Source of the DNA: Gemmatimonadota bacterium
GTDB lineage: Bacteria; Gemmatimonadota; Gemmatimonadetes; Gemmatimonadales; GWC2-71-9
Direction of reading: 5' to 3'
DNA: 64,000 nt
Assembly (NCBI GenBank): GCA_003223395.1
Contig: QHUZ01000040.1
Coordinates: 5,381 to 69,380 of the forward strand
Both the position numbers and the translations under genes were made by a program. Within the stretch, counting starts at the first letter, position 1. Each line of letters begins with the position of its first letter. Below the pieces are notes generated by a model, which had not been told where the DNA came from, did no database searches, and was given only the letters and a program-made list of their open reading frames with translations. Of this stretch, positions 6,783 through 53,153 are shown piece by piece.

Positions 6783-8027
<1,245 letters not shown>

Positions 8028-8037
8028 GGTCTACAAA

Positions 8038-9275: not shown

Positions 9276-9279
<4 letters not shown>
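8038..9279 (-). CDS. FtsX/MacB-type ABC permease, subtype A (second copy)
   Basis: Track ORF 8038..9393. The preferred start is ATG 9279 (MTGGSLFEGVGIALASLRASKARAALTILGVAIGV), in an ATGA overlap with the upstream stop. Motifs GGVGVIAIMMISVTERTREIGVRKALGATRR and DPVEALRYE. Confidence 0.85.
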
Positions 9280-10520
<1,241 letters not shown>

Positions 10521-10522
10521 CG

Positions 10523-11752
10523 TTACTCGTATCGCAGCGCCTCGACAGGATCCAGGCGCGCCGCCTTGCTTGCGGGATAAATCCCGAACAGCAATCCGGT
10601 GACGGCGGCCGCGATCAACGCGGTGATGATAGAGCCGACGGGCACGTACGCCGGGACGGGCGTGAAGTTGTGCAGCACAAAGGCGATGATCCAGCCGATG
10701 ACCATGCCGACGATGCCGCCGACGAGTGTCAGCGTCGCGGCTTCGACGAGGAACTGCCACATGACTTCTCGCTTCGTCGCGCCGAGCGCCTTGCGCACGC
10801 CGATCTCCCGCGTCCGCTCGGTCACGGAAATCATCATAATGGCGACGACGCCGATTCCTCCGACGATCAACCCCACCATCGACAGCGCGACCATGAGTGC
10901 ACGGGCCACGAAGGTAAACTGGTCGATCGCCTTCACGTACACCTCCTGCGTGACCGCATCGAAGTTGTTCTTCTGTCCGGGTCTGAGCCCGCGCATCGTC
11001 CGCATCGCCATGGTCACATCATCGATGGCGTGCTGGGTCGACACCGAGTCTTGCGGAACCACGAACATGTCCATCCAGCCGGGCCAGTACCGCAGGTCCT
11101 TTTGGAAGGTGCCGTGGGGCATCATGACCTCGGGCCGATCGCCATCGCCGAACATCCGGGGCGGGGGATTGTAGACTCCGACCACGTCGTACGGCAGCCC
11201 GCCGATCTTGATGCGACGATTCATCGGGTCGCGCTGCCCGAACAGGTTTTCGGCCAGCTTGCTGTTGATGACCGCGACGTGGGCGTTGGATGCATCCTCG
11301 AGATGTGTGAACGAGCGGCCCGGCTCGATCAGCCCGCCTTCGATCTTCGGCCAATCGGCGTTCCGCCCGCGGATCCCGATCGCGGCCATCCGGCGGCCTT
11401 CGAATTCGATGTCGGCAGACGTGTACTCATCCACCACGACGAAGGCGACGGTCGGGAGCAGCGCCAACCGATTCGCTTCATCGACCGTGATCGGGGGACG
11501 GCGCCGCCAGGGATTCGGATCTTCCGGATCCTCGTCGTTCTGGCCACCCCAGTAGCGCCCGACCCAGAACGTCTTCGGGCCGAGCGACGCCAGCATATCC
11601 GTGACGCCCTTGTTGAAGCCGCTGATCAGGGCACCGATCACCATGACGACCGTGACACCGATCGCGACGCCCAGGATCGTCAGTGCGGCGCGCATCTTGT
11701 GCGCCCGCAGGGACACCAGAGCAATGCCGACGCCTTCGAACAGTGCGGTCAT
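10523..11752 (-). CDS. FtsX/MacB-type ABC permease, subtype A (first copy)
   Basis: 409 aa, starting MTALFEGVGIALVSLRAHKMRAALTILGVAIGV. Motifs GGIGVVAIMMISVTERTREIGVRKALGATKR and DPVEALRYE. Confidence 0.85.
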   Translation of the reverse strand: MTALFEGVGIALVSLRAHKMRAALTILGVAIGVTVVMVIGALISGFNKGVTDMLASLGPKTFWVGRYWGGQNDEDPEDPNPWRRRPPITVDEANRLALLPTVAFVVVDEYTSADIEFEGRRMAAIGIRGRNADWPKIEGGLIEPGRSFTHLEDASNAHVAVINSKLAENLFGQRDPMNRRIKIGGLPYDVVGVYNPPPRMFGDGDRPEVMMPHGTFQKDLRYWPGWMDMFVVPQDSVSTQHAIDDVTMAMRTMRGLRPGQKNNFDAVTQEVYVKAIDQFTFVARALMVALSMVGLIVGGIGVVAIMMISVTERTREIGVRKALGATKREVMWQFLVEAATLTLVGGIVGMVIGWIIAFVLHNFTPVPAYVPVGSIITALIAAAVTGLLFGIYPASKAARLDPVEALRYE

Positions 11753-11755
11753 GCG

Positions 11756-12994
11756 TTACTCCTGCCGCAGGGCGGTGATCGGATCGAGCTTCGCGGCCCG
11801 GCTCGCGGGATACACGCCGGCGACGACGCCGACTCCGGCTCCCATGATAACTCCGAGCACGACGGATGCAGGCGATACACTCGCCGGTAGCGGCGAGATC
11901 TTGTTGATCAGGATCGTGAGCCCGATCCCTGCGAAAATGCCGATTGCCGCGCCGACGGTCGCGATGGCGGTCGACTCGGCCAGGAACTGGCGCAGCACGT
12001 CCCGGCGCCGGGCGCCAAGCGATTTGCGCAGCCCGATTTCGCGCGTGCGTTCCGCGACCGCCATGAGCATGATGTTCATGATCACGATCCCACCGATGAC
12101 GAGCGACACCACCACGATCCCGGGAATGACGGTGACGAGAATGCGGCTGATCCCCGCCCAGAAGCGCTGCACGCCCTCGGAGGTATCGAGGACGAAGTTG
12201 TTGTCCTGCTTGGGCCGAAGATGGCGCCGGCCGCGCATGATCCCCTCGGCCTGCGACATCGCTTCCCGCATTTCGGGGTCCGAGCGTGCCTTGACGAGGA
12301 AGGCATCGAGAATGCCGGGTGGATTCACCAGGTTTTGCGCCGGTGAAAGGGCCGGGACAACGACGAAGCGGTCGAGGGGAAATCCGAGGATGCTGCCCTG
12401 ATGCTCCACGACACCGATGACGCGGTAGGGAACGCCGCCGATTCGCACACTCTTGCCGAGTGGCGTGCGGTCGACGAACAGCCGTTTGGCCACGGCATCG
12501 CCGAGTACGGCGACCGGAGCGCCCGAGCGATTCTCTTCGCCCGTGAACGGCCGGCCCATCGCGATGCCCAGATTCTTGATGTCGAAGTACCGCTCGCTCG
12601 CGGTGGTCAGCTCGATGTCGCGCGCTTCCTTATTGCCGTACGACACCGTGACTTGATCGCTCGACTGCCAGGCGGTCATCACGGGGACGGTGAGGCCCTC
12701 GCTGATCGCTTCGGCGTCGCTGAAGCGGATCCGCGGCCGCCGCGCCCATGCGCGCCACACCGAGTCGGGGACGTTCGGTGTGAACATCGGCCGGCGCCGC
12801 AGCTGGAAGGTGTTCACGCCGTAGAGCGTCTGCGCAAACTTCTCCGTCATGTAGCGGTTCACGCCATTCGCGATGGACCACGCGGCGATGAGCGACGCAA
12901 CGCCGATGAAGACGCCGAGCAGCGAGAAGCCGCTCTTCAGCTTCTGCGCCCGGATCGTTTGAATCGCAAGACGGAAGGCTTCGAAAAACGGCAC
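11756..12994 (-). CDS. FtsX/MacB-type ABC permease, subtype B (first copy)
   Basis: Track ORF 11756..13036. The preferred start is GTG 12994 (VPFFEAFRLAIQTIRAQKLKSGFS), 1 nt after the ATPase stop. Motifs GGIVIMNIMLMAVAERTREIGLRKSLGA and DPITALRQE. Confidence 0.8.
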   Translation of the reverse strand: MPFFEAFRLAIQTIRAQKLKSGFSLLGVFIGVASLIAAWSIANGVNRYMTEKFAQTLYGVNTFQLRRRPMFTPNVPDSVWRAWARRPRIRFSDAEAISEGLTVPVMTAWQSSDQVTVSYGNKEARDIELTTASERYFDIKNLGIAMGRPFTGEENRSGAPVAVLGDAVAKRLFVDRTPLGKSVRIGGVPYRVIGVVEHQGSILGFPLDRFVVVPALSPAQNLVNPPGILDAFLVKARSDPEMREAMSQAEGIMRGRRHLRPKQDNNFVLDTSEGVQRFWAGISRILVTVIPGIVVVSLVIGGIVIMNIMLMAVAERTREIGLRKSLGARRRDVLRQFLAESTAIATVGAAIGIFAGIGLTILINKISPLPASVSPASVVLGVIMGAGVGVVAGVYPASRAAKLDPITALRQE

Positions 12995-12995
12995 G

Positions 12996-13723
<728 letters not shown>

Positions 13724-15065: not shown

Positions 15066-16565
15066 TTAACGCAAGCTGCGGCCGACGGCTGCTTCCAATG
15101 CCGCCAGGGCCTTGTGATAGTCGTACGTCGCGTTCACTGCATCGCTTTCGGCACGGAGCGAGGCGACCTGCGCGTCCAGCAGCTCGAAGAACGTCCCCGA
15201 CCCGACGCGGTAGCGCTCGGTGGCCAGCTGGAGCTGCTCGCGCGCGGCGCTGCGATTCGTATCCTGCAAACCGACGGTCCGGAACGCGGTTTGGAGCGTC
15301 AAAAATGCCTGGCTCACTTCCGTCTGCACCGCGAGGCCGCGCGCCCGCACCGACTCCTCGAGGTTACCGTGCTGTGCACGTGCAGTTGAGACACTCAGCT
15401 CGCGCGCAAAGTTGTTAAAGATCGGCAACGTCACCGTCAAACGGGCCTGGAACGGCTGCCGGGTGAAATTGAACGGGAACACGGAATTCCGGCTCCGCAG
15501 CGCCTGCTCGTCGGACGCGCCCCAGATGAAGCCGCTACAATCGTTCGGGGGCAGTCCCGCGTTCTGACGGATCGTGTTGTTGTCCTGGCATTCCGAGTAC
15601 TGGCCTGCGAAGGCGGCCTGCTGACTGAAAATGATCGGATCGACGTTGGTGAACTGCTGCGTGAAGCCCGACCAGCCCGCCGACAGCGACAGTGCCGGTC
15701 CGTAGCTGGACGTCGCGGCCCGCACGCTCCACGCGGCTGCACCCTCGCGCGCACGCAACGCCTTGAGCGCCGGGTTCTGTTGCTCCGCCATCGTGAGGAG
15801 ATCGGCGAGCTGCCACTCCGGCGTCTGCACGCTGAACGAGTCGGTGAGCTGCACCGCCGCCACGTCGAGCGGTGGCGTCACACCCATCTGCTCGAACAGC
15901 CGCAGCTTTTCTACGTTGACGAGTGTTTGGGCGCGCAGCAGGCCCACTTCCGCCTGCCCGCGTGCGACTTGCGCCTGGCGGACGTCGATCAGCGTCGCTT
16001 GGCCGACGCCGTAGCGTGCCTGCGCGAGCTTCAGGAACTCTTCGTTGCGCTGGAGCGTCTTCTGCGCCAGGTCAGCCTGCGCGCGCGCCTGCAGCACCGT
16101 CAGGTACTGCTGCTTGATGCCGGTGATGAGCGCGTTCTCGGCGCCGGCGACGTCGGCATCGGCGGCGCGCTGCTGGGCTTTGGCCAGTCCCGGTTGGGAT
16201 AGCGTGCTGCCCGACAGCTGCCACGACAGTCCCACATCATAGAATGAAGAGACGGTAGAGACGCTCTGCGTGAAGCTCGACGACAAGAACGTCTGCGAGC
16301 CGGGGCCTGTGTAGCTCATCCCCCCCGACGCGATGATCGACGGGATCAACAGGCTGGAGTACGCGCCCCGCACGCCCCAGGCCGCCGGGGCTAGGTTGTT
16401 CTGGGCCTGCCGGAACGCGGGGTTCTTTTCGCGCGCGACGGCGATGGCGTCGCTGAGCGACAGACCCGCCGTCGTCACCGGCTTCGTGGGAGTTGTGGGC
16501 TGCTGCGCAACTGCGACGGCGGCGGGGCCTAACAGCAGGCCTGCCACGAGCAACACCTGTTTCAT
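15066..16565 (-). CDS. TolC-family outer membrane efflux protein
   Basis: 499 aa. Signal peptide MKQVLLVAGLLLGPAAVAVAQQ. Internally repeated coiled-coil/beta layout with typical TolC N-terminal (LSLSDAIAVAREKNPAFRQA) and second-repeat (LLTMAEQQNPALKAL) motifs. Confidence 0.85.
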   Translation of the reverse strand: MKQVLLVAGLLLGPAAVAVAQQPTTPTKPVTTAGLSLSDAIAVAREKNPAFRQAQNNLAPAAWGVRGAYSSLLIPSIIASGGMSYTGPGSQTFLSSSFTQSVSTVSSFYDVGLSWQLSGSTLSQPGLAKAQQRAADADVAGAENALITGIKQQYLTVLQARAQADLAQKTLQRNEEFLKLAQARYGVGQATLIDVRQAQVARGQAEVGLLRAQTLVNVEKLRLFEQMGVTPPLDVAAVQLTDSFSVQTPEWQLADLLTMAEQQNPALKALRAREGAAAWSVRAATSSYGPALSLSAGWSGFTQQFTNVDPIIFSQQAAFAGQYSECQDNNTIRQNAGLPPNDCSGFIWGASDEQALRSRNSVFPFNFTRQPFQARLTVTLPIFNNFARELSVSTARAQHGNLEESVRARGLAVQTEVSQAFLTLQTAFRTVGLQDTNRSAAREQLQLATERYRVGSGTFFELLDAQVASLRAESDAVNATYDYHKALAALEAAVGRSLR

Positions 16566-16674
16566 GGTCGTCCTTGAAAAGATATGTCGTGAGGTCGAAG
16601 CGCCCTACGCGCGAGTAGCGACAGCGGTTTCGGCCTGCGACAACAACCTAGTCGGGAGGCCAAGCACAGCAAGG

Positions 16675-17349
16675 TCAGCTGCCGGCGAGGCGCTCGACGA
16701 CGAGGTGTCGGGAGGGGATGTCGACCTTCATGAGACGCCCAGCTTCATCCAGCCAGAGATTGACCGTACCCTGACCCTCCGTGCCCACCACGATGTGCCG
16801 CAGGCGGGCGGGGTCTCGGTTGAGGGTCGTGGACGTCATTCCCAGGTCGTGGATCTGGACGACATCACGCCGCAGGCCCCGCGGGAAAATGGCTGTCAAC
16901 GTGCCAGGCTCGGACGCGCCACGCCATGCCGCGAAGACGTAAAGTGCAAACACCGAATCGTCGAGCACCGCCGTTCGCTGCCCGGTCGGGAATTCCCGGG
17001 CGCGCTCGGTGGCGCGCGCGACGAGCCGCACGGTGAACCGTCCCCGGCCCAGCTCGCCGAGAATGCGCGAGGGTTGACGGGGATCGGCGACGTCGTACTG
17101 CAGCGTGGCAGGCATCGTGTCGCTGTTCACTTCGAGGATGGGCGCGAGGACCACCACCGGCCGCGCGCGATCGTAGCGGATCGTCGTAGCCAGTGTCCAA
17201 CCGGCATCGCCGCGCGACAATCGCCCGTGCGTCAAACGGAACGACTCGCGCGCAACCTCGAGTGTATCGATGCGCACGACGAGGACGCCCTCGTCCACGG
17301 GCGATCCTGCGACTTGCAGCAGCGTAAGGGCGAGCAGACATGCGCTCAT
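16675..17349 (-). CDS. Hypothetical secreted protein
   Basis: 224 aa with a short hydrophobic N-terminus (MSACLLALTLLQVAG). It overlaps the upstream creatininase stop by 4 nt. No family recognised. Confidence 0.45.
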   Translation of the reverse strand: MSACLLALTLLQVAGSPVDEGVLVVRIDTLEVARESFRLTHGRLSRGDAGWTLATTIRYDRARPVVVLAPILEVNSDTMPATLQYDVADPRQPSRILGELGRGRFTVRLVARATERAREFPTGQRTAVLDDSVFALYVFAAWRGASEPGTLTAIFPRGLRRDVVQIHDLGMTSTTLNRDPARLRHIVVGTEGQGTVNLWLDEAGRLMKVDIPSRHLVVERLAGS

Positions 17350-18065
17350 GCGGCTACCGCTCCCAAAACTCGCGTCGCGATGCGGTCATGAATCATCTTA
17401 TACAGGCGTGCCCCCTTTTCGGCTGAGGCGAGGCTCGGCCGCCCCACGGAACCAGGGGACAGGGCGGGGACGGAACCGGCGGCCTGCCGCCGGTACCGCT
17501 CCACCTGCCGGTCGCTCAGGAGATAGTCCTGCGCGAGATCCATGCGGACCAGCTCGGGTGCCAGGTGGAGCATGAGCGACGTATCGAGCTCGCCACCGTG
17601 GGTGGGGCCGGCGGGGTCTTCGAGATAACCGGTGAAGTCGAGCGCAAAGATGTCCACGGTGAATACCCGTGCCCGCCGGGTGCGGAGCGTCGAAAGGGCC
17701 TCCTGGTGCGGGTCGTGCCCGTGGGCGGTAAGAATAATGAAGGTGTCCACACCGCACTGCTCCCAGGAGCCAAGCAGATCGTTCATCCAGCGGTGCAACG
17801 TCTTGCGGCGCACCGCGGCGTTCCCGGGGTAGGGTCGCTTCGTAGCGGTGTTCACGCCGTACGGGACCGTAGGCGCCCGCAGGATGCCAAAACCGGCCGA
17901 AAGGTCATCGGCCAGGCGCTCGACGATTATCGTATCACAGCCCAGCGGGAGATGGGGTCCGTGTTGTTCGCAGGTGCCGACGGGCACCAACAATCGTGAG
18001 TCGCGCGCGAGGGCGGCGCGCACCGCGTCGGGGGTGAGAACACTCAGGTGCAGCGGCAAACTCAC
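17346..18065 (-). CDS. Creatininase-family amidohydrolase
   Basis: Track ORF 17346..18203. Motifs: PVGTCEQHGPHLPLG, LTAHGHD, HGGELDTS. The Arg/Gly-rich N-terminal extension looks non-coding, so I prefer GTG 18065 (VSLPLHLSVLTPDAV) or TTG 18059. Confidence 0.75.
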   Translation of the reverse strand: MSLPLHLSVLTPDAVRAALARDSRLLVPVGTCEQHGPHLPLGCDTIIVERLADDLSAGFGILRAPTVPYGVNTATKRPYPGNAAVRRKTLHRWMNDLLGSWEQCGVDTFIILTAHGHDPHQEALSTLRTRRARVFTVDIFALDFTGYLEDPAGPTHGGELDTSLMLHLAPELVRMDLAQDYLLSDRQVERYRRQAAGSVPALSPGSVGRPSLASAEKGARLYKMIHDRIATRVLGAVAA

Positions 18066-21000
18066 GTCGTAATCGCCGGCTGCTTCGTGGGTCTGGCGAC
18101 GGCCGAGTGGCTCCGCGGCGACGCGGCCGTGTGGGCCGCCCTCGCCGCCGGGGCGAGCCTCGTTGCAGTCGTGCTCGCCGTGCGGCTGCCGGCTCCGCGG
18201 CACAAGATCACCATGGCCGCCGCGCTCGCCAGCTTGCTGCTCGGCGTGATCCTTGGCAGCGGCGCGCTGAAAGTGTGGCGCATCGAGTGTTGCTGGCCGG
18301 CGTTGCGGGAGCAGCGTGTGACCGGGGCGTCGCGGTCATTGCAGACCGCGCTCGGCCAGGCGACAGCCGAAGCGCGCCGCCTCGCGGAACGCGGGGCGAT
18401 GGCCGCCACACTGCCGCGCGAGGCGGTGTTCGATCGACTCGCCGGCGCGGTGACATCTGGTCCCGAATTCGAGCGCGGCAGCGCCGTGCTCCAGGATGGC
18501 GAAGCACCAACCTTCGTCGCTTGGGCGGGACGCCACCGCACGATTCCCGCGGCTCCGGACACGACCGAGCTGCAAGCGGTCATGACTCCATTCTACGCGG
18601 TGCTCGAGGCGCGGCGCCAGACACAGACGGCAACGTCGGTAGGCAGCGTACTCTTGTCGGCGACACGGGCGATCGCCGACGGCGATCACAGCCTCGCCGC
18701 CCGGTTTGCGCGCGAGTATGGCGTGTCGCTGCGCTTGTTCCCCGCAGGCCAGGGGCCGCGTGACTCGAGCGTCTTCGAGATTTGCAATCCACGCACGCCG
18801 CCGAACAAGCCGTGCGCGCCCGGCGACACGCTCTTCTCCGTTCAAACGATTCCGCCATCGCAAGGAGACGCGAAACTCGCGGCACTTGCGAATACCGCAT
18901 GGCTCGCCCGACTCGGGCTGGCCCTCCTGCTCGTGACCCTGCTGGCGGCCGCGGCACCCGGTCGCTGGCGCTGGGGCGTGGTCGTGGTGGCGGGCTGGGT
19001 CCTGCTGCGCGCGCCCGTCGGGCCACGGTTGCTGTTCTCACCGGCGACGTTCTATCGGCCCGTTGTTGGCGTCTTCGGCACGTCCGCTGGCTCGCTCCTC
19101 GTTGCGGGTGTGGTCGTGCTTATCGCCGCCGGTGGGTTGTGGCGGCGCGGCGTAAAGCGAACGTGGTGGGGGATGGCCGCCGCCACCTTCCTGATCCTCG
19201 CGGCACCATACGTCGTGCGCCACTTCGGCCGCGGCATCGCGCCGCCGGCGAGCGGCGTCAACCTCGAGCTGTTTGTCTCGTGGCAGGCGGCGCTCGCCGT
19301 GACGGCGATGGCGTTCATTCTGCTCGCGGCCGCGCTGGTGCGCGGCACGAACGAACCCGAGCGTGTCTCGTGGGCGCTGCCCGCCGCGTGCGCCTGGGCT
19401 GGGCTGGCGGCCATTGGCGGCCTGTGGCTCTGGAGCCCGCACGGCGCGTGGCCCGAGTGGTACACGTTCCTCTGGCTTCCCGCGCTCGTCTGGTCGACCC
19501 TCCCCGCGCCGCGACGTTGGGCACTGATCGGCATGGCGGTCGTCGCCGGCACAGCGGCCGCGCTAATCGCGTGGGGCGCTGCCGTCGAGGGGCGTTTGTC
19601 GCTCGCCACCCGCGATGCGCAGCGGCTGGGTCACGAGGGCGACGCCGTCGCGGTCGCGTTGCTCGAGCGTCTCAGCCAGCACCTGATCACCTCCTCACAA
19701 CCGCCGCCGCAGACCGCGGGCGATCTGTACGCGTTGTGGGTCGACTCGCCGCTCGTCGCCGAGGATTATCCCGCGATGCTCGAACTCTGGGGCGCGGGGC
19801 CGGAGGGACCGCTCCTTGCGGAGCTGCAGCTCGCGCAACTCGACCTCAAGCCCGGTCTGCTGTCTGCGCTCGCCCGCTCGGCGGTGGACGGTCCGTGCAT
19901 CGAACGGCTGGAGGCCATCCCGGGCGTTCACTACGTTCTTGTCGCGCCGCTCGCCAACGGCACGGTGCTCACGGTAGGTGTCGGCCCACGCACACGATTG
20001 CTCCCACCCAATCGCGTGGCGCGCTTTCTCCGGGGCGATCCCGGTGTGGAACCCCCGTACACGATCACGCTGTCGCTGCCGAGTCATGCGATGGGCATGG
20101 GCGGGTCGGTCGAGTGGCGACGTGAGGAATGGTCGGTCCGCGGCGAACGGCACGTCGATTTGCCCGGAGGCGCCCGTCACGTGCACCTCCGCGTCGCACT
20201 CGGCGGTCCATGGTCACTCCTGGTTCGCGGCATTCTCATCGTGGGCTTCGACGTGGCGCTCCTGGCTGGCGTGTGGCTGTTCGGACTCATCATCGCCGAA
20301 GGCTGGCGGGCACGCCTGCCGGCGCTGCTCACGACGCTGCGCACGAGCTATCGGGCGCAGCTCACGTCTGTGCTCATCACATTTTTCGTCTTGCCAGTTC
20401 TTGGATTTGCGGCCTGGAGCTTTACCGACCTGGCCGAGGATGCTCGTCGCTCCGGCGATCTGCTCATTCGCCAGACGCTCCGCGACGCCGCCGCCGGCGC
20501 CGAAACCGTGGCCCAAGATCCGCCTGAGATGATCGCTCGCTCCCTCGTCGAGTTGGGCCGCCGGCTCGACGCCGAATTGTGGCTGTATCGCCGTGGCGTA
20601 CTCGTTGCCACGAGCTCGCCCGTGCTGGGGGAGCTCGGTTTGGTCGATCCATTTCTCGCTCCCCAGGTCTTCCGGGGCACGCTCGAGGATGAGCTCGAGA
20701 CGACCATCGACGCGCGCACTGGCGGCCGGCCGACCCGCGTCGGCTTTCTCGTCGTTGCGCCGGGTCCCACCGGTGAGCAGGGAGTGCTGGCAGTGCCGCA
20801 GCTGTTGGACGACGAGCGCATTCGGGAGCAGCGGGAGGATCTCACCTTTGGCATCCTGCTGGCGATGCTCGTCGGGTTGGTGGCCGCGATCTACCTTGCC
20901 GGCCTCGCGGCGCGCCGGCTCGCGAAACCGGTCGCCGCGCTGCGCGAAGCGGCCATAGCCGTGGGGCGGGGCAGTGAGCCGCCGGCCTTCCCACCGGGCA

Positions 21001-22094
21001 CGCCACGGGAATTCGAGCCGGTCCTCAGCGCCTTCGATCGGATGGCGACCGACGTGCGCCGCAGCCAGGCGGCGCTGGAAGAAGCGCGGCTCCGCACCGC
21101 ACGCGTGCTCGCCAACGTCGCCACCGGCGTGATCGCGGTCGACGATGCGCTGCGCGTCACCATGGCCAACCCGCGCGCGTCCGAGCTGGTGTTGGGAGGG
21201 ACCGAGACGCTGGCGCCCGGCAATGTTCTCCCGCAAACGACGGCCCCGGGGTGGGCGTCGGTCTGGCAGGCGGTCGCGGAGTTCATCGCTCAGAATCGCG
21301 ACGTGATCCAGGAGCGCGAATTCGATGTCGGCGGGCGGCAGATTCGCGTGCAGCTGGCGCTGCTGGGCGCCGCGCCCGACGGCTGCGTCATTGCGCTCGA
21401 CGATGCGACGGCGCTGACCCGTGCGGCGCGTGTGCTCGCGTGGGGCGAAATGGCACGCCAGGTCGCGCACGAAATCAAGAATCCCCTCACCCCGATTAGA
21501 CTCGGCATCCAGCATCTGCAGCGGGTGCGAGGGAAGGGTCAGTCCACGACGTTCGAGGCGACGCTCAAGGAAACGTCGGAGCGCATTCTGGCGGAAATCG
21601 ACCGGCTGGACGGAATCGCGCGCGCGTTTTCGCGGTTCGGCGCGCCGTCGGACGCCGAGCAGCTGCCGCTGGAGCCGGTGGATCTCGCGGCGACGGCCCG
21701 CGAAGTCGTGCGGCTCTACGATCTCGGCGCGGCGCCGCGGTTCGAGGTGCAGACGAGCAACGGGGCGCCCCCACCTGCGCTCGCGCGCAAGGACGAGGTC
21801 AAAGAAGTGCTCGTGAACCTGCTGGAGAACGCGCGGAACGCCGATGCGAAGCGGGTGACCGTCCAGATCGCAGCGAGCGGCCGCCAACTGGTCGTCGTCG
21901 ACGATGGCCGCGGGATTCCGGCGGAGGTCCTGCCGCGGGTCTTCGAGCCGACGTTTTCGACGACGTCGAGCGGCGCCGGACTCGGACTGGCGATCGCGCG
22001 CCGCCTGGTGGAGAGCTGGGGCGGGGTGATCACGCTCGAAAGCGGCCCCGGCAAAGGGACACGGGTCACTCTGACGCTCCAAACCGCATCGTGA
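18048..22094 (+). CDS. Large multi-pass sensor histidine kinase, NtrY-like (about 13 TM segments, HAMP, PAS, HisKA, HATPase)
   Basis: 1348 aa. HAMP after the last TM (RRLAKPVAALREAAIAVG), PAS (VLANVATGVIAVDD), H-box WGEMARQVAHEIKNPLTPI, N-box LVNLLENARNA, G1 VDDGRGIP, G2 GAGLGLAIA. Third-position GC is high from about 18066 onward, which supports the GTG 18048 start. The alternative start is ATG 18213. Confidence 0.85.
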   Translation: MQRQTHVVIAGCFVGLATAEWLRGDAAVWAALAAGASLVAVVLAVRLPAPRHKITMAAALASLLLGVILGSGALKVWRIECCWPALREQRVTGASRSLQTALGQATAEARRLAERGAMAATLPREAVFDRLAGAVTSGPEFERGSAVLQDGEAPTFVAWAGRHRTIPAAPDTTELQAVMTPFYAVLEARRQTQTATSVGSVLLSATRAIADGDHSLAARFAREYGVSLRLFPAGQGPRDSSVFEICNPRTPPNKPCAPGDTLFSVQTIPPSQGDAKLAALANTAWLARLGLALLLVTLLAAAAPGRWRWGVVVVAGWVLLRAPVGPRLLFSPATFYRPVVGVFGTSAGSLLVAGVVVLIAAGGLWRRGVKRTWWGMAAATFLILAAPYVVRHFGRGIAPPASGVNLELFVSWQAALAVTAMAFILLAAALVRGTNEPERVSWALPAACAWAGLAAIGGLWLWSPHGAWPEWYTFLWLPALVWSTLPAPRRWALIGMAVVAGTAAALIAWGAAVEGRLSLATRDAQRLGHEGDAVAVALLERLSQHLITSSQPPPQTAGDLYALWVDSPLVAEDYPAMLELWGAGPEGPLLAELQLAQLDLKPGLLSALARSAVDGPCIERLEAIPGVHYVLVAPLANGTVLTVGVGPRTRLLPPNRVARFLRGDPGVEPPYTITLSLPSHAMGMGGSVEWRREEWSVRGERHVDLPGGARHVHLRVALGGPWSLLVRGILIVGFDVALLAGVWLFGLIIAEGWRARLPALLTTLRTSYRAQLTSVLITFFVLPVLGFAAWSFTDLAEDARRSGDLLIRQTLRDAAAGAETVAQDPPEMIARSLVELGRRLDAELWLYRRGVLVATSSPVLGELGLVDPFLAPQVFRGTLEDELETTIDARTGGRPTRVGFLVVAPGPTGEQGVLAVPQLLDDERIREQREDLTFGILLAMLVGLVAAIYLAGLAARRLAKPVAALREAAIAVGRGSEPPAFPPGTPREFEPVLSAFDRMATDVRRSQAALEEARLRTARVLANVATGVIAVDDALRVTMANPRASELVLGGTETLAPGNVLPQTTAPGWASVWQAVAEFIAQNRDVIQEREFDVGGRQIRVQLALLGAAPDGCVIALDDATALTRAARVLAWGEMARQVAHEIKNPLTPIRLGIQHLQRVRGKGQSTTFEATLKETSERILAEIDRLDGIARAFSRFGAPSDAEQLPLEPVDLAATAREVVRLYDLGAAPRFEVQTSNGAPPPALARKDEVKEVLVNLLENARNADAKRVTVQIAASGRQLVVVDDGRGIPAEVLPRVFEPTFSTTSSGAGLGLAIARRLVESWGGVITLESGPGKGTRVTLTLQTAS

Positions 22095-47151: not shown

Positions 47152-48654
47152 ATGGCTCCTTCCGAATTCAAGAACTTCATCGCCGGCGATTGGGTCAGTC
47201 CCTCGACGGGCGAGTACTTCGAGAATCGCAACCCCGCCGACTGGAATGACGTGATCGGCCGGTTCCCGCGGTCGGGCCCCGACGACTTGAAGCGCGCGAT
47301 CGCGTCGGCCAAGCGCGGCTTCGCCCAGTGGTCCAAGACGCCGGCGCCGATTCGCGGGCAAGTGTTGCAACGCGCCGGCCAGCTCCTCGTCGAGCGCAAG
47401 GATGCCATCGCCCGCGCGATGACGCGCGAAATGGGCAAAGTGGTCGCCGAGACCGGCGGCGACGTCCAGGAGGGGATCGACACGGCGTTCTATGCGGCGA
47501 CGGAGGGCCGCCGGCTGTTCGGGCGGGTCGTCCCGTCCGAGCTGCGCAGCAAGTGGGCGATGAGCTATCGCCGTCCGATCGGGATCGCGGGACTCATCAC
47601 CCCGTTCAATTTCCCGCTCGCGATCCCCACGTGGAAAATGTTTCCCGCCCTGCTGTGCGGGAACGCGGTGATCTTCAAACCGGCGGAGGACGTGCCACAC
47701 ACGGCGCACCTGCTCGTCGAGGTGTTGCTCGAGGCGGGCCTGCCGCCGGAGGTCGTGCAGCTGGTACACGGCCAGGGCTCGGTGGTGGGTCGCGCGCTCG
47801 TCGAGCACGCCGACGTGCCGGTCATCTCGTTCACCGGTTCGACGGAAACCGGCTCCGCGATCGGCGCGACGTGCGGCAAGATGCACAAGCGGTTGTCGCT
47901 CGAAATGGGCGGGAAGAACGCGATGATCGTGATGGACGATGCCGATCTGGATCTGGCGCTCGACGGAGTGCTGTGGGGCGCATTCGGCACGACGGGGCAG
48001 CGCTGTACGGCGACCAGCCGGCTCATCCTGCACGACAAGGTCCACGACCGGTTCGTGCAAATGCTGACCGACCGCGCCGCGAAGCTGCGGCTTGGCCCCG
48101 GTCTCGACAACAAGACGGACGTCGGCCCCTTGATCCACGAAGAGGCGCGGCAGAAGGTCGCAGAGTACGTCGACATCGCCAAGCAGGAAGGTGCAAGCGT
48201 GGCGCTCGGCGGACGGATTCCGCAGGGGGACAAGCGGCTCGAGTGCGGCTGGTTCTATGAGCCGACGGTGCTCACCGGCGTGAAGCCGGGGATGCGCGTC
48301 GAGCAGGAAGAGATTTTTGGCCCCGTCCTCGCCGTCCTGAAGGCGAAGGACCTGACCGAAGCGATCCGCATCAACAACGGGGTGAAGTACGGGCTGTCCA
48401 GCTCGCTCTACACGCGCGACATCAACGGCGCGTTCCAGGCCATGACCGATCTGGACACGGGCATCACCTACGTCAACGCGCCCACGATCGGCGCGGAGGC
48501 ACACCTCCCCTTTGGCGGCGTAAAGCAGACCGGCAACGGACACCGCGAGGGGGGGTGGGAAGTCTACGACTTCTACTCCGAGACGAAGACGATTTACGTC
48601 GACTACTCGGGCACACTGCAACGGGCGCAAATCGACACGGAGTTCAGCCCTTGA
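47152..48654 (+). CDS. NAD(P)-dependent aldehyde dehydrogenase family protein
   Basis: Internal ATG 47152 of track ORF 46399..48654. Motifs: FTGSTETG, LEMGGKNA, catalytic Cys GQRCTATSR, EEIFGPV. Confidence 0.9.
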   Translation: MAPSEFKNFIAGDWVSPSTGEYFENRNPADWNDVIGRFPRSGPDDLKRAIASAKRGFAQWSKTPAPIRGQVLQRAGQLLVERKDAIARAMTREMGKVVAETGGDVQEGIDTAFYAATEGRRLFGRVVPSELRSKWAMSYRRPIGIAGLITPFNFPLAIPTWKMFPALLCGNAVIFKPAEDVPHTAHLLVEVLLEAGLPPEVVQLVHGQGSVVGRALVEHADVPVISFTGSTETGSAIGATCGKMHKRLSLEMGGKNAMIVMDDADLDLALDGVLWGAFGTTGQRCTATSRLILHDKVHDRFVQMLTDRAAKLRLGPGLDNKTDVGPLIHEEARQKVAEYVDIAKQEGASVALGGRIPQGDKRLECGWFYEPTVLTGVKPGMRVEQEEIFGPVLAVLKAKDLTEAIRINNGVKYGLSSSLYTRDINGAFQAMTDLDTGITYVNAPTIGAEAHLPFGGVKQTGNGHREGGWEVYDFYSETKTIYVDYSGTLQRAQIDTEFSP

Positions 48655-48830
48655 CGGCGGCAGTACCGGAGGAGTAGACTAGGCTTACAACTGAAGACTC
48701 GTGGTCATTTGCCGCGTATTGCCGCCACGTTAAACAAGGTGCTAAAAAGCGAACTCGCCCGCGGCTTTATTAGTCCGGGCGACGGTCGTTTTAGGAATCG
48801 CTTTCTCGCGGCGCTTACGCCGGAGGTGCG

Positions 48831-49739
48831 ATGACCGCCCGCAAAGTCACAGTCGCCACGTTGTCCGCGTTGAAAGCCCGGAGCGAAAAGGCGGTGTTTG
48901 TCACCGCGTACGATTATCCCACCGCGACATTCGCCGATCGCGCGGGTGTCGACATGATTCTGGTGGGCGATTCCGCGGCGATGACGATGCTGGGCCTGCC
49001 GAGCACGCTGCAGATCGGACTCGACGAAATGCTCGTATTCATCCGTGCGGTCACGCGCGCGGCGCAGCACGCGTTTGTGATCGGCGACCTGCCGTTCCTG
49101 TCCTATCAGCCATCCGACGAAACCGCGATCCGGAGCGCGGGGGCATTCATCGCTGCGGGATGTGACGCGGTGAAATGCGAAGGCGGCGCACGCGTCGCGC
49201 CGCGCGTGCGGGCGATGGTCGATGCCGGCATTGCCGTGATGGGTCACCTGGGCCTCACGCCCCAGAACCTCGGCCAGCTCGGTGGTTACCGCGTTCAGGG
49301 GAAATCGTTAGCCGCGGCGGAGCAGCTGCTTCGTGACGCAGAATCGCTGGAGCGCGCCGGCGTGTTTGCGATTTTGCTCGAGGCCGTCCCCGCGGAGACG
49401 GCGGCGTTCGTGCGCGAGCGCGTTGGGGATGGCGTGCTCGTCTACGGGATCGGCGCCGGCCCCCACGTGGACGGGCAGCTCGTCATTTCGCACGACATGC
49501 TCGGCAACTTCGTCGGCGAGATCGCGCCCCGGTTCGTGAAGCGCTATGCCGAGGTCGGCGGCGTGGTCGAAGGTGCCTTCCGCGACTACGCCCGGGACGT
49601 ACGTGCCGGCGTGTTCCCGGGTCCCGAGCATTGCTATCAGATCGATCCCGCCGACGAGGCGCTGATACGCGCGGCCCGCACGACCCGCACAGTCCGACCG
49701 GCGTCGCGAGCGACGCCGGTGGTGGAGGTCCGGCCGTGA
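48831..49739 (+). CDS. panB: 3-methyl-2-oxobutanoate hydroxymethyltransferase PanB
   Basis: 302 aa. Motifs: YDYPTA, ILVGDSAAMTMLG, VKCEGG, MGHLGLTPQ. GGAGG lies 5 nt upstream of the ATG. Confidence 0.9.
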   Translation: MTARKVTVATLSALKARSEKAVFVTAYDYPTATFADRAGVDMILVGDSAAMTMLGLPSTLQIGLDEMLVFIRAVTRAAQHAFVIGDLPFLSYQPSDETAIRSAGAFIAAGCDAVKCEGGARVAPRVRAMVDAGIAVMGHLGLTPQNLGQLGGYRVQGKSLAAAEQLLRDAESLERAGVFAILLEAVPAETAAFVRERVGDGVLVYGIGAGPHVDGQLVISHDMLGNFVGEIAPRFVKRYAEVGGVVEGAFRDYARDVRAGVFPGPEHCYQIDPADEALIRAARTTRTVRPASRATPVVEVRP

Positions 49740-50746
49740 CGACCAGTGTCGCCGCGCCGCTGGGGCTCCGACCACGGCCGCAGGTGTGCCGCGCCTGCGG
49801 AGCGCTACACGCGCCCGCGCCGATCGCAGTGTGCGAGCAGTGCCTCGGCCCGCTCGATCCTGTTTTCGATGCCGCCCGCGTGACTCCCACCCGGGACGCG
49901 ATTGCCGCGCGCCCCTGGTCACTGTGGCGCTACCGCGAGTGGCTGCCCTTTGACGGTGAGCCGGTGCTCTCGCTCGACACGGGTGGGACGCCGCTCGTGG
50001 AAGCGCCGCGACTCGCCCCGCTGCTCGGCGTAGCGCGCGTCTGGGTCAAGAACGACGCGGTCTCACATCCGTCGTTGTCGTTCAAGGATCGCGTGGTCGC
50101 GACGGCGATCAATGCGGCCGCCGCGTTCGGGCTCGACACGATCGGCTGCGCCTCCACCGGCAATCTGGCAAACGCCGTCGCGGCGCAGGCCGCCCGCGCC
50201 GGTCTCAAGGCGTGGATCTTCATCCCCGAAGACCTCGAGGCGGCCAAGATCGTCGGGACCGCGGTGTACGGCGCGCGGCTGGTCCGCGTGCGCGGTCACT
50301 ACGACGACGTGAATCGTCTCTGCGCGCAGGTGGCCGATCTGTTCGGCTGGGGCATCGTCAACGTCAACCTGCGCGGCTATTACGGCGAGGGCTCAAAGAC
50401 GATGGCGTTCGAGATTGCGGAGCAGCTGGGGTGGCGGCTGCCGACCGCGGTCGTCGCGCCGATGGCCGGCGGTTCGCTCGTTACGAAGCTGCGCAAGGGG
50501 TTCCGGGAGTTCGCCGCGGCGGGACTGGTGAGCGGGGGCGCCCCCCGCATGTTCGGCGCCCAGGCGTCGGGTTGCGCGCCGATCGTTCGGCTTGTGCGCG
50601 AGGACGCAGACGCGGTCGAGCCCGTCGTGCCGCACACCATCGCCCGGTCGATCGCGATCGGGAATCCCGCCGACGGGCTATTCGCCAAGCGTGCCATTCT
50701 CGAGCGGTTATCGCGCCACGCGTTGCGGAAGTGCGCGCTTTGGTAA
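49736..50746 (+). CDS. Threonine synthase-like PLP enzyme (ThrC/MetM-type) with N-terminal Zn-ribbon; C-terminus truncated relative to the family
   Basis: GTG 49736 forms a GTGA overlap with the panB stop, inside track ORF 49631..50746. Motifs: CRACG...CEQC, PLP-Lys SLSFKDR, CASTGN, PMAGGS, GAQASGCAPI, IAIGNPADG. The ORF stops about 25 codons after GNPA, where I recall about 85 more residues in the family. Confidence 0.7.
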   Translation: MTTSVAAPLGLRPRPQVCRACGALHAPAPIAVCEQCLGPLDPVFDAARVTPTRDAIAARPWSLWRYREWLPFDGEPVLSLDTGGTPLVEAPRLAPLLGVARVWVKNDAVSHPSLSFKDRVVATAINAAAAFGLDTIGCASTGNLANAVAAQAARAGLKAWIFIPEDLEAAKIVGTAVYGARLVRVRGHYDDVNRLCAQVADLFGWGIVNVNLRGYYGEGSKTMAFEIAEQLGWRLPTAVVAPMAGGSLVTKLRKGFREFAAAGLVSGGAPRMFGAQASGCAPIVRLVREDADAVEPVVPHTIARSIAIGNPADGLFAKRAILERLSRHALRKCALW

Positions 50747-50762
50747 AGGGGGAAGGCCTCGC

Positions 50763-51713
50763 ATGACCGCACGCGTGCGCGTGCCGGCGAGCTCGAGCAA
50801 TCTGGGCGCGGGATTCGACTGCGTCGGCGTGGCGATCGACCGCTGGCTGGCCGCGTCGGTGACGCTAGAGAGATCGGGGGGCTTCTCGATCCGGCGGCGC
50901 GGGAAACTGAGCGCCGTCAAAGTCCGGCCCGATCAAGATCTTTTCACTCGGGGGTTCCGCGCCGCATGCGCCGCCGGCGGCGCCGTCACACCCGCCGGCG
51001 TGACGATCGATGCCACCTCTGACATTCCGGTCGGTTGTGGTCTCGGCTCGTCGGCGGCGGCAATCGTTGCCGGCGCCATGCTCGCGGATGCCGCGCTGGG
51101 ATTGGGTCTGTCGCGCGCTCAGGTGCTGGAGGTCGGCACAACGATCGAGGGTCATCCCGACAACATTGCGCCGGCCATCTACGGTGGCGCTGTGTTGAGC
51201 GTTCACACGGCCGCGGGATTGGCGACATCGCCGCTGCTCGTCGCGCCCGGTATCGAGCTGCTGATTGCGGTGCCGCCGTTCCCGAACGACACGAAGGCGG
51301 CGCGCGCCGCTCTGCCACACACGTTGCCACACACGGATGCGGTAGTCGCTGCCGGTCGCGCAGCTGCGCTGGTGCAGGGCCTCGCCACCGGTGCCGCCGC
51401 GCTGCTCGCCGCGGCGCTCGACGACGTGCTGCATGTGCCGTTCCGGCGCGGGCGCATTCCCGGCTACGACGCCGTCGTGGCCGCGGCAAAGCAGGCCGGC
51501 GCGTACGGTGCGACGCTGTCCGGCGCCGGATCGGCGATCGTCGCCATCGCGCCGCGCGAGCGGTCGGGTCCCGTCGGGGCCGCGATGATCGCCGCGTGGC
51601 GCGAAATCGGCATTGCTGCCGAACTCATCACATGCCCGAGTCCCGTCGCGGGTGCCATGGTGACCGCATCACCACGCACCACGCACCACGTCCCACTCAC
51701 GAGTCAGCTGTGA
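50763..51713 (+). CDS. thrB: Homoserine kinase ThrB (GHMP kinase)
   Basis: Internal ATG 50763 of track ORF 50592..51713. Motifs: VPASSSNLGAGFD, the GHMP motif PVGCGLGSSAAAIVA, and HPDNIAPA. Confidence 0.88.
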   Translation: MTARVRVPASSSNLGAGFDCVGVAIDRWLAASVTLERSGGFSIRRRGKLSAVKVRPDQDLFTRGFRAACAAGGAVTPAGVTIDATSDIPVGCGLGSSAAAIVAGAMLADAALGLGLSRAQVLEVGTTIEGHPDNIAPAIYGGAVLSVHTAAGLATSPLLVAPGIELLIAVPPFPNDTKAARAALPHTLPHTDAVVAAGRAAALVQGLATGAAALLAAALDDVLHVPFRRGRIPGYDAVVAAAKQAGAYGATLSGAGSAIVAIAPRERSGPVGAAMIAAWREIGIAAELITCPSPVAGAMVTASPRTTHHVPLTSQL

Positions 51714-51726
51714 CGAAGGAGATCCC

Positions 51727-52002
51727 ATGAGCGTGACACTGCAACTGCCGACGGTACTCGCAAAACTCGCCGATGGCCGGCGTTCCCTCGAAGCGGAAGG
51801 AGCGACGTTGGGCGATGTCGTCGCCGACGTGGCAGCCCGGTTCCCCGGGCTCGCGCCGCGTCTGCGAGATGACGCCGGCAAGCCCTATCCCTTCGTGACG
51901 TTTTACGTGAACGACGACGACGCCAGATTCCAGGGCGGGTTTGCGGCCAGCGTGCGTGACGGCGATGAGATCATCGTCGTCCCGGCCATCGCGGGAGGTT
52001 GA
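51727..52002 (+). CDS. MoaD/ThiS-family ubiquitin-like sulfur-carrier protein (C-terminal Gly-Gly)
   Basis: 91 aa, ending DGDEIIVVPAIAGG*, the beta-grasp carrier hallmark. Confidence 0.85.
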   Translation: MSVTLQLPTVLAKLADGRRSLEAEGATLGDVVADVAARFPGLAPRLRDDAGKPYPFVTFYVNDDDARFQGGFAASVRDGDEIIVVPAIAGG

Positions 52003-52004
52003 CC

Positions 52005-53153
52005 GTGACGACACTCGCCCAGGCCGAGCTGGTCCGCTACAGCCGACACCTCATCCTTCCCGACGTCGGGATACCTGGTCAGGAAAAGTTGAAAGCCGCT
52101 CGGGTCCTGCTCATCGGCGCGGGCGGGCTCGGCTCGCCGGCGGCGCTCTATCTCGCCGCGGCCGGGGTCGGCACGCTCGGTCTCGTGGACTTCGACAACG
52201 TCGATGTCACGAACCTGCAGCGGCAGATCCTGCACGGCACCAAGGACGTCGGGCGGCCGAAGCTCGTGTCGGCGCGCGAGCGCATCGCCGATGTGAACCC
52301 GCACGTGCGGTTGGAGACGTACGAGACGGCGCTCACCTCGAAGAACGCGCTGGACATCCTCAGCGGCTATGACATCGTCGTCGATGGCACGGACAACTTC
52401 GCGACGCGCTATCTGGTGAACGATGCGTGCGTCCTGCTTGGCAAACCAAATGTGTACGGCAGCATCTTCCGGTTCGAAGGACAGGCTTCGGTCTTCGCGC
52501 TCCCCGACGGACCGTGCTACCGCTGTCTCTTCCCGGAACCGCCCCCGCCCGGACTCGTGCCGAGCTGCGCCGAGGGCGGCGTGCTGGGCGTGCTGCCGGG
52601 TCTCGTCGGGACGATTCAGGCGACGGAGACGATCAAGCTGATCGTCGGCGCGGGCGAACCGCTCAAGGGCCGGCTGCTGCTCATCGACACGCTTGGGATG
52701 CAGTTCCGGACCGTCAACGTTCGCAAGGATCCGGCATGCCCGGCCTGCGGCACGCGTGAGATCCGCTCTCTGATCGATTACGAACAGTTCTGCGGTGTGC
52801 GGACCGCGGAAGCGGAGCCGCGGGCCGTTGGCGGGTTCGTCGAGATCACGCCGCGCGAGCTGCAGAGCCGGCTATCGCGCGGGGAGGAGCTGCAGCTGAT
52901 CGACGTGCGGGAGCAGTTCGAGTGGGACATCGCCCGCATTCCCGGCGCGCGGCTCGTGCCGCTGGCGACGTTGCCCGAAGTGGCGGAGACGCTTGACCAC
53001 GGCCGCGAAATCGTGGTCTACTGCAAGGGCGGCAGTCGCAGTCGCGCGGCGGCGACGCATCTCGCCGACGCAGGATTCCCGCGCGTGACGAATTTGACGG
53101 GCGGGATCCTGCGGTGGCAGGCGGAGGTCGATCCGACGCTGCCGCGGTATTGA
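52005..53153 (+). CDS. MoeZ/MoeB-type E1-like adenylyltransferase fused to a rhodanese domain
   Basis: Track ORF 51999..53153 (TTG). GTG 52005 sits 7 nt after GGAGG. Motifs: RYSRHLILP, LIGAGGLGSP, Zn cysteines CYRC...CPAC, and a C-terminal rhodanese with active-site YCKGGSRS. Confidence 0.88.
   Translation: MTTLAQAELVRYSRHLILPDVGIPGQEKLKAARVLLIGAGGLGSPAALYLAAAGVGTLGLVDFDNVDVTNLQRQILHGTKDVGRPKLVSARERIADVNPHVRLETYETALTSKNALDILSGYDIVVDGTDNFATRYLVNDACVLLGKPNVYGSIFRFEGQASVFALPDGPCYRCLFPEPPPPGLVPSCAEGGVLGVLPGLVGTIQATETIKLIVGAGEPLKGRLLLIDTLGMQFRTVNVRKDPACPACGTREIRSLIDYEQFCGVRTAEAEPRAVGGFVEITPRELQSRLSRGEELQLIDVREQFEWDIARIPGARLVPLATLPEVAETLDHGREIVVYCKGGSRSRAAATHLADAGFPRVTNLTGGILRWQAEVDPTLPRY

Follow-up and report, generated by a model that had tools for sequence, protein, structure and literature searches.

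A SAM-II riboswitch-headed operon in a Gemmatimonadota bacterium predicted to encode a MetM/MetO-type, protein-thiocarboxylate route to homocysteine

In Streptomyces albulus, homocysteine is formed from O-phosphohomoserine and the thiocarboxylate of a small carrier protein by the MetM/MetO route (Hasebe et al. 2024, Appl Environ Microbiol 90:e01247-24, as entered in GapMind 2026, 10.1101/2024.10.14.618325). A report on this system places an S-adenosylmethionine (SAM) riboswitch upstream of S. albulus metM, with metO adjacent, and gives a Microcystis homologue as 51.6% identical to MetM (PMC12172450). The GapMind entry lists a Mec-dependent maturation of the MetO carrier (10.1101/2024.10.14.618325). 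Here we describe a comparable locus in a 64,000-nucleotide (nt) stretch of contig QHUZ01000040.1, from a soil bacterium of the Gemmatimonadales (Gemmatimonadota); the whole stretch is referred to as the window. Positions 48651–53153 are predicted, on the evidence of sequence, to form a single operon in which SAM represses the synthesis of homocysteine through the MetM/MetO (protein-thiocarboxylate) route, a reading to which we assign a probability of roughly 80%; membership of the encoded enzymes in this route is the most likely interpretation of the comparisons presented below.

The window has a G+C content of 62–71%. The predicted operon contains the following features, in which PLP stands for pyridoxal 5'-phosphate, aa for amino acids and E1 for an E1-like adenylyltransferase:

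48651..48680, plus strand: promoter-like site TTGACG-18-TAGACT (consensus scan)
48700..48749, plus strand: SAM-II (SAM_alpha, RF00521) aptamer (Rfam 38.6 bits against a gathering score of 36, E 3.7e-5)
48750..48792, plus strand: putative intrinsic terminator and expression platform, a GC-rich hairpin followed by a U run (hairpin conserved directly after the aptamer in six of six leaders)
48831..49739, plus strand: panB-like gene of the ketopantoate hydroxymethyltransferase family, first gene 3' of the riboswitch (Pfam Pantoate_transf, E 4e-96)
49736..50746, plus strand: metM-like gene for a ThrC-fold PLP enzyme with a Zn ribbon, truncated by a frameshift (PALP, E 1.2e-48)
50704..50705, no strand: deletion junction, 229 nt present in intact relatives being absent (alignment with loci L001 and L005)
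50763..51713, plus strand: thrB, homoserine kinase (TIGR00191, 214.4 bits against a cutoff of 168.25; GHMP_kinases_N and C domains)
51727..52002, plus strand: metO/CysO-like sulfur carrier of 91 aa with a C-terminal GG (Pfam ThiS, E 2.4e-12)
52005..53153, plus strand: moeZ-like E1 with a C-terminal rhodanese, CKGGSRS (ThiF, E 1.7e-85; Rhodanese, E 6e-21)

From panB to the E1 gene, neighbouring genes overlap or are separated by gaps of at most 16 nt: the panB stop overlaps the ThrC-like start within GTGA, the gap between thrB and the carrier gene is 13 nt, and the E1 start abuts the carrier stop. The E1 open reading frame (ORF) can be started at 51999 or 52005, and gene callers pick the 382-aa start. 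An earlier note on this DNA had read the last four genes as a tightly spaced row encoding a truncated ThrC-like enzyme with an N-terminal ribbon, ThrB, a 91-aa beta-grasp carrier and an E1 with a CKGGSRS rhodanese, and had proposed from them a carrier-thiocarboxylate route from O-phosphohomoserine to homocysteine. The gene row holds in every part. All four ORFs lie on the plus strand with the Pfam or TIGR matches listed above; the ThrC-like ORF carries an N-terminal four-cysteine ribbon, CRAC...CEQC (with a weak zf-ChsH2 match, E 0.0026), thrB lies between it and the carrier gene, the carrier ends in ...AIAGG, and VYCKGGSRS is present in an E1 that has both ThiF and Rhodanese domains. The proposed route is in turn supported by a SAM-II leader, a distinct ThrC subfamily and a CysO-like carrier.

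The SAM-II aptamer was the sole Rfam match in a scan of the whole window; it lies 3' of an aldehyde dehydrogenase gene that stops at 48654 and 5' of panB. Across six aligned Gemmatimonadales leaders, all distinct, the aptamer was near-invariant and the −35 sequence CTTGAC was kept in most; the T run that follows the hairpin stands out in L012, L007 and L013. One change among the six leaders (C...GU versus A...UC) may be compensatory, in a pairing of uncertain register. Fetched Gemmatimonadales loci were scored with Rfam, and SAM-II was above the gathering score just 5' of the first operon gene in seven relatives. Its position was as in the window in L001 and L002 (38.6 bits each), L011 (39.1 bits), L007 (52.5 bits) and L012 (53.7 bits), the last two leaders aligning to the full 79-position model at 52–54 bits; it was 5' of an aminotransferase gene in L010 (39.1 bits) and directly 5' of the ThrC-like gene in L013 (41.7 bits). 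A metagenome scan seeded with a Gemmatimonadaceae orthologue gave 80 further loci. In 47 of these a sequence profile detected SAM-II, one copy each, on the plus strand at the 5' end of the operon, and in nearly all of the other 33 the contig ends within the operon. SAM-II heads the operon in every Gemmatimonadota relative with its 5' end present. The leader is predicted to act as a transcription-terminating OFF switch.

We also surveyed the surroundings of the ThrC-like gene in 80 genomes from Acidobacteriota, Planctomycetota, Verrucomicrobiota, Cyanobacteria, Binatota, Nitrospinota and other phyla. A 91-aa ThiS-like gene lies directly downstream (<2 kb) in 71 of the 80, and three of the nine genomes lacking it have the locus cut by a contig end. 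At these 71 loci thrB is usually not nearby, and usually no MoaE/MoaA-type gene was recognised near the ThrC-like/carrier module. None of the outcomes that the earlier note had named as refuting the route was observed. According to Rfam, a riboswitch of the SAM-I class lies directly upstream in Acidobacteriaceae, Planctomycetes, Kiritimatiellae, Methylacidiphilales, Binatus/Binataceae and Actinoplanes derwentensis. A sequence profile built from the Rfam-verified elements and run on the flanks of the 80 genomes found SAM-I on the coding strand in 45, eight of these elements being Rfam-verified: it is 79–260 nt upstream of the ThrC-like gene in 43 genomes and upstream of a MoeZ-like gene preceding the ThrC-like gene in two. 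The profile had no match elsewhere in about 1.4 Mb of flanks. SAM-I and SAM-II are unrelated classes, and their occurrence ahead of one and the same module in different phyla argues strongly for a role of that module in methionine/SAM supply. The cyanobacterial loci of the survey had no SAM-I, in agreement with the Microcystis report (PMC12172450).

Among the Actinobacteria, Nonomuraea gerenzanensis has the order SAM-I, ThrC-like gene, ThiS-like gene, which is the arrangement reported for S. albulus metM/metO, and holds a separate canonical ThrC. The sequence in question, NZ_LT559118.1 (L172), is entered in PLSDB as 'plasmid I' of this species; it is chromosome-sized at 11.85 Mb, with 10 annotated features. 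In Actinoplanes derwentensis, SAM-I precedes the ThrC-like gene. A 91-aa ORF nearby was rejected as its carrier because it is not ThiS-like, so that carrier adjacency is not universal in Actinobacteria. A tblastn search of the plasmid collection returned the Nonomuraea match and no Streptomyces MetM, and a homologue search seeded with a Micromonosporaceae protein returned Micromonosporaceae matches only. The link of the window enzyme to the characterised S. albulus MetM is an indirect one, drawn through homologous sequences. One Nitrospinota locus (L088, 9005–13757) has a different composition: a PALP protein (303 aa), a MetM-like enzyme, a ThiS-like carrier, a ThiF-only E1, a second PALP protein (337 aa) and a small protein with a sub-threshold match to thioredoxin-like [2Fe-2S] ferredoxin (24.0 bits against a cutoff of 24.8). 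Around its single carrier, this cluster may bring together thiocarboxylate routes to cysteine and to homocysteine.

The ThrC-like enzyme was compared with canonical threonine synthase by use of P0001, a full-length (418-aa) orthologue that is 96% identical to the window ORF. P0001 was searched against 1.84 billion cluster representatives, and the family alignment was then run against one genome per species. The window ORF contains the Schiff-base lysine motif SFKDR, and solved ThrCs are matched at E 1e-55. The ThrC-like subfamily is spread over at least 10 phyla, among them Acidobacteriota, Planctomycetota, Verrucomicrobiota, Cyanobacteria, Binatota, Methylomirabilota and Nitrospinota, in which the search recovered it at 50–58% identity. 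Identity to subfamily members of other phyla is 47–57% (about 47% for actinobacterial and 50–54% for cyanobacterial members), as against 32–39% for canonical ThrC. A residue signature was derived by alignment with solved ThrCs, using the numbering of Thermus thermophilus ThrC and 82 members that include P0001 and two actinobacterial proteins; canonical residues were those invariant in five ThrCs, two solved and three second-copy. All 82 members have V64, L88, N155, R157, Y160, A187, S240, G249 and T323, the canonical residues at these positions being G64, T88, S155, N157, R160, G187, A240, W249 and D323, respectively. The canonical N188 is G or S in the subfamily. We take T88, S155, R160 and N188 to contact the substrate phosphate/carboxylate in the T. 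thermophilus ThrC structures. By eye, the retained part of the window ORF carries the signature residues up to position 249, and a 16-position signature is common to the window orthologue and the riboswitch-linked actinobacterial homologues.

In neighbour-joining (NJ) analysis the canonical ThrCs split from the subfamily in 100 of 100 bootstraps, and P0001 scores 191 bits against solved ThrCs, compared to 475 for a true second-copy ThrC. The ThrC-like protein therefore does not cluster with canonical ThrC, as its low identity also indicates. We rejected a clean MetM-like clade that excludes all other Zn-ribbon ThrC-like representatives, as this was recovered in only 29 of 100 bootstraps; the basal proteins P0161, P0164 and P0179, with partial signatures, interleave with the MetM-like group, and the robust split is from canonical ThrC only. 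The phylogeny suggested in the earlier note thus delivered the separation from canonical ThrC and not the clean MetM-like clade. Canonical ThrC coexists with the subfamily in four genomes, on the same contig in a Terriglobia genome (L044, near thrB), a Thermodesulfovibrionia genome (L050) and Nostoc (L081), and on the same 11.85-Mb replicon in N. gerenzanensis. At the Terriglobia locus (16247–19999), thrB precedes by about 1.5 kb a ThrC of canonical signature with its own N-terminal Zn ribbon, and the MetM-like/carrier pair lies 7 kb upstream of that ThrC. We discarded the ribbon as a marker of MetM-like enzymes because this canonical-type ThrC also has one and it is therefore not subfamily-specific.

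The best match of the carrier in the PDB is M. tuberculosis CysO (3dwg_C, E 2.1e-23, full length), followed by 4n6e_B, which we take to act in 2-thiosugar synthesis; MoaD and SAMP proteins match far more weakly (3e-7 for MoaD). The carrier gene is one gene away from the ThrC-like gene, with thrB between. The protein ends exactly in GG, as do 100 of the 139 family members examined, so that no C-terminal processing should be needed for it. Many carriers of Acidobacteriota and other phyla have 1–4 residues beyond the GG. MetO-like carriers of Acidobacteriaceae can have a cysteine-rich tail past the Gly-Gly (e.g. ...IAGG-SCSCCSYCGREECVCG), and such cysteine-tailed carriers are found at L015 3674–4048 and L025 11283–11606 as well as in L017, L019, L020 and L031. 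The translated E1 contains GAGGLGS, CYRC...CPAC and CKGGSRS. Its scores against NF005902 (MoeZ, 512 bits, equivalog cutoff 647) and NF005646 (515.6 bits) are both below the cutoffs; that against NF006444 (MoeB) passes, at 471.5 bits for a cutoff of 449. The E1 thus has the architecture of MoeZ without reaching the MoeZ equivalog level.

In the proposed pathway, ThrB would convert homoserine to O-phospho-L-homoserine. The MoeZ-like E1 would adenylate the C-terminal Gly-Gly of the 91-aa carrier, and its rhodanese domain would deliver persulfide sulfur to give the carrier thiocarboxylate (carrier-COSH). The MetM-like enzyme would then carry out a gamma-replacement on O-phosphohomoserine with this thiocarboxylate as the nucleophile, homocysteine being formed either at once or by way of a carrier adduct from which it is released. 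At high SAM levels, SAM would bind the SAM-II aptamer, and the downstream hairpin and U run would terminate transcription. We infer all of the chemical steps by homology to S. albulus MetM/MetO and M. tuberculosis CysO/CysM/MoeZ, and treat termination as the probable control mode and the exit of homocysteine from the carrier as a proposed step.

Several observations weigh against this assignment. The U run after the leader hairpin is weak in the window, and a strict terminator scan of the window made no call for the hairpin; P1 of the aptamer is invariant in the six aligned leaders and so has no covariation support. A JAMM/Mec-type hydrolase was sought and not found in about 45 scanned ORFs of the window, nor was one found adjoining the module in six other phyla, so homocysteine release from a possible carrier adduct lacks an explanation. 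Neither the 64-kb window nor the flanking DNA of some 90 related loci contains a second ThrC homologue, and the window ORF passes the TIGR00260 thrC equivalog cutoff (208 bits against 167); for these two reasons the ThrC-like protein could be the cell's only threonine synthase. Finally, the route would be dead as assembled, because the metM-like gene is without its last 96 codons.

Compared to L001 and L005, which differ from the window by one mismatch only across all shared positions, 229 nt are missing after 50704, which confirms the truncation noticed earlier. The window ORF consists of 323 native residues and 13 frameshifted ones, with a stop at 50744–50746, and the TGNGLKT motif is among the lost native codons. 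Six near-identical contigs, each from another sample, have the gene order of the window without the deletion and keep the metM-like gene intact; they encode a 419-aa enzyme, and the end of its gene overlaps the start of thrB via ATGA. Four soil metagenome runs contain 86–91% of the sequence words sampled from the region; their contigs break off at 50704|50705, with loose ends that continue into the absent 229 nt, and the junction of the window is spanned by none of them. Because six contigs and four soil runs are without it, the deletion is either private to the source strain, making the gene a pseudogene, or an assembly error. We give an even chance to an assembly or consensus error, in which case the organism would hold an intact 419-aa gene and a working pathway. 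The match of the window flanks to the intact-gene contigs of six other samples and the continuation of the soil contigs into the missing sequence argue for an error; on the other hand, Logan contigs drop rare variants, so that a real strain-level deletion may go unseen, and there is no long repeat at the junction to account for assembler collapse.

We consider it very improbable that the locus is an ordinary thrC-thrB operon lying beside a MoaD/MoeB-type pair for molybdenum cofactor, thiamine or tRNA thiolation, with the enzyme a threonine synthase. The names in public records, where orthologues are called 'threonine synthase', agree with such an operon, as do the thrC cutoff passed by the enzyme, the adjoining thrB, the E1 score above the MoeB cutoff and the want of a second thrC in the window and related flanks. 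However, control by a SAM riboswitch is linked to neither threonine nor molybdenum cofactor, and the carrier follows the subfamily in the great majority of surveyed genomes, usually without thrB or a recognised MoaE/MoaA. The canonical T88, S155, R160 and G187/N188 are replaced in every one of the 82 members, a canonical ThrC stands beside the subfamily in four genomes, and the carrier is CysO-like rather than MoaD-like. Comparably improbable is the production of some other sulfur compound by the same parts (cysteine from O-phosphoserine, a thio-amino acid or a cofactor, with thrB serving threonine), for although the closest solved relatives of the carrier act in cysteine and 2-thiosugar synthesis and a Nitrospinota carrier is flanked by MetM-like and CysK/CysM-like PALP genes, two unrelated SAM riboswitch classes point to methionine/SAM supply, many Gemmatimonadota variants have the homoserine kinase within the operon, and the enzyme has the ThrC fold, nearest to users of O-phosphohomoserine, and matches TIGR01136 and CysM only at E 1e-6.

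Returning to the MetM/MetO route, its operon occurs in several gene orders in Gemmatimonadota (AT, aminotransferase):

SAM-II-PanB-MetM-ThrB-carrier-E1 (the window type)
SAM-II-AT-PanB-MetM-ThrB-carrier-E1
SAM-II-AT-PanB-(ThrB)-carrier-E1-MetM
SAM-II-PanB-carrier-E1-MetM
SAM-II-[tandem rhodanese]-ThrB-carrier-E1-MetM (checked with Pfam)
SAM-II-carrier-E1-MetM
(AT-)SAM-II-MetM-carrier

Kinase and E1 in one string with the enzyme, a trait to which the earlier note had drawn attention, are recurrent operon members across these variants. A ThrB search aimed at a housekeeping copy in Gemmatimonadota returned operon orthologues only (≥74% identity). The variants headed by a sulfurtransferase fit with a sulfur relay. 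A tandem-rhodanese sulfurtransferase is the first gene after SAM-II at L098 4353–5312 and L100 4364–5284, and also in L112 and L096; its C-terminus reads ...YDGSWTEWGN, and thrB, the carrier gene, the E1 gene and the MetM-like gene lie 3' of it.

The panB-like gene encodes a protein that scores 261.5 bits against TIGR00222 (cutoff 207.55) and matches PDB 1oy0 at E 8e-65, with the motifs VGDS, DLPF, VK.EGG and GIGAG aligned to that structure. A divergent paralogue was considered and rejected, as the PanB equivalog cutoff is passed and the motifs of solved PanB are kept. In roughly half of the Gemmatimonadota loci whose 5' end is complete, panB falls within the SAM-II unit, in several gene orders, and a class-I aminotransferase precedes panB in at least eight loci. 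Operon starts with panB or the aminotransferase include 48831–49739 of the window, L010 5308–7456, and those of L146, L162, L167, L138 and L114. The aminotransferases encoded within the riboswitch unit and those encoded outside it share 58% identity. In the literature we found no link of PanB to a SAM riboswitch and no natural PanB route to homoserine. It is conceivable, though we think it unlikely, that the SAM-controlled Gemmatimonadota operon encodes a complete, aspartate-independent route from pyruvate to homocysteine. The PanB-like enzyme would hydroxymethylate pyruvate with 5,10-methylene-tetrahydrofolate to 4-hydroxy-2-oxobutanoate, which the co-transcribed class-I aminotransferase would convert to homoserine; ThrB would phosphorylate the homoserine, and MetM, MetO and MoeZ would add the sulfur. 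If true, this would be a natural counterpart of a step of the synthetic 'homoserine cycle' and would give a role to every gene of SAM-II-AT-PanB-MetM-ThrB-MetO-MoeZ. The sober alternative is that inherited synteny with a housekeeping panB accounts for the placement of panB.

If the MetM/MetO assignment is right, the thiocarboxylate route to homocysteine extends to Gemmatimonadota, and a two-gene module under SAM-I or SAM-II control is found in Acidobacteriota, Planctomycetota, Verrucomicrobiota, Binatota and other soil phyla, where the enzyme is routinely annotated as 'threonine synthase'. The signature (L88, N155, R157, Y160 and others) offers a simple separator of MetM-like enzymes from ThrC for annotation and for the prediction of auxotrophy. 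The Gemmatimonadota operons are the most complete versions seen, with kinase, carrier, E1, enzyme and sometimes a sulfurtransferase, and this makes them convenient for reconstitution. That panB and the aminotransferase recur under SAM control gives a concrete lead towards what may be a new source of precursor.

Two other regions of the window were recorded. On the minus strand, 5538–13036 holds five consecutive MacB_PCD/FtsX-type permease genes, which adjoin genes for an ABC ATPase, an HlyD-type adaptor and an outer-membrane efflux protein (up to 16565). On the plus strand, 18048–22094 is a 1348-aa ORF with Pfam matches only to C-terminal HAMP/HisKA/HATPase domains, from about residue 950; its long N-terminal part has no Pfam match and may include an over-extended start.

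We compared the locus with known systems, beginning with its leader. SAM-II (SAM_alpha) of Alphaproteobacteria is alike in that the Rfam model is matched above the gathering score; the host phylum here is Gemmatimonadota. SAM-II control usually operates by occlusion of the ribosome-binding site. Here the aptamer is followed by a terminator-like hairpin and lies about 80 nt from the start codon, which suggests transcriptional control rather than such occlusion. Canonical thrC-thrB resembles the locus in the fold of the enzyme, the PLP lysine motif, the proposed substrate and the adjacency of thrB, but differs in the residues of the enzyme (here T88L, S155N, N157R, R160Y, G187A and N188G/S) and in that the subfamily gene is carrier-linked and SAM-controlled.

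The HcyS/HcyF/HcyD/MetY methionine route of Wolinella succinogenes, reportedly described by Krishnamoorthy and Begley in 2011, is similar in that an E1-like enzyme makes the protein thiocarboxylate from which homocysteine receives its sulfur. That route employs O-acetylhomoserine, a MetY-type (fold-type I) sulfhydrylase and a JAMM protease, none of which is seen here. The CysO/CysM/MoeZ/Mec system of M. tuberculosis is closer in its parts, with a carrier near that of the window and an E1 composed of ThiF plus rhodanese, and would share its logic, the carrier thiocarboxylate attacking a PLP-bound intermediate derived from a phosphorylated hydroxy-amino acid. The PLP enzyme is of the ThrC fold here and of the CysM (O-acetylserine sulfhydrylase) type there, the proposed substrate is O-phosphohomoserine rather than O-phosphoserine, and no Mec/JAMM gene was found nearby in the window.

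The S. albulus MetM/MetO system is alike in its ThrC-homologous PLP enzyme with a small sulfur-carrier gene nearby, in O-phosphohomoserine as the implied substrate, in a MoeZ-type E1 as activator and in a SAM riboswitch upstream of the enzyme gene. The locus described here differs from it in the class of the riboswitch (SAM-II, whereas the two actinobacteria checked have SAM-I), in having thrB and moeZ inside the operon, in a carrier that ends in GG and for which Mec-dependent maturation would be unneeded, in the presence of panB, to which relatives add an aminotransferase or a tandem rhodanese, and in its lineage, Gemmatimonadota, with about 47% identity to the actinobacterial enzymes. The route is thus known in kind, being published and included in GapMind 2026; the lineage is new and the operon is richer.

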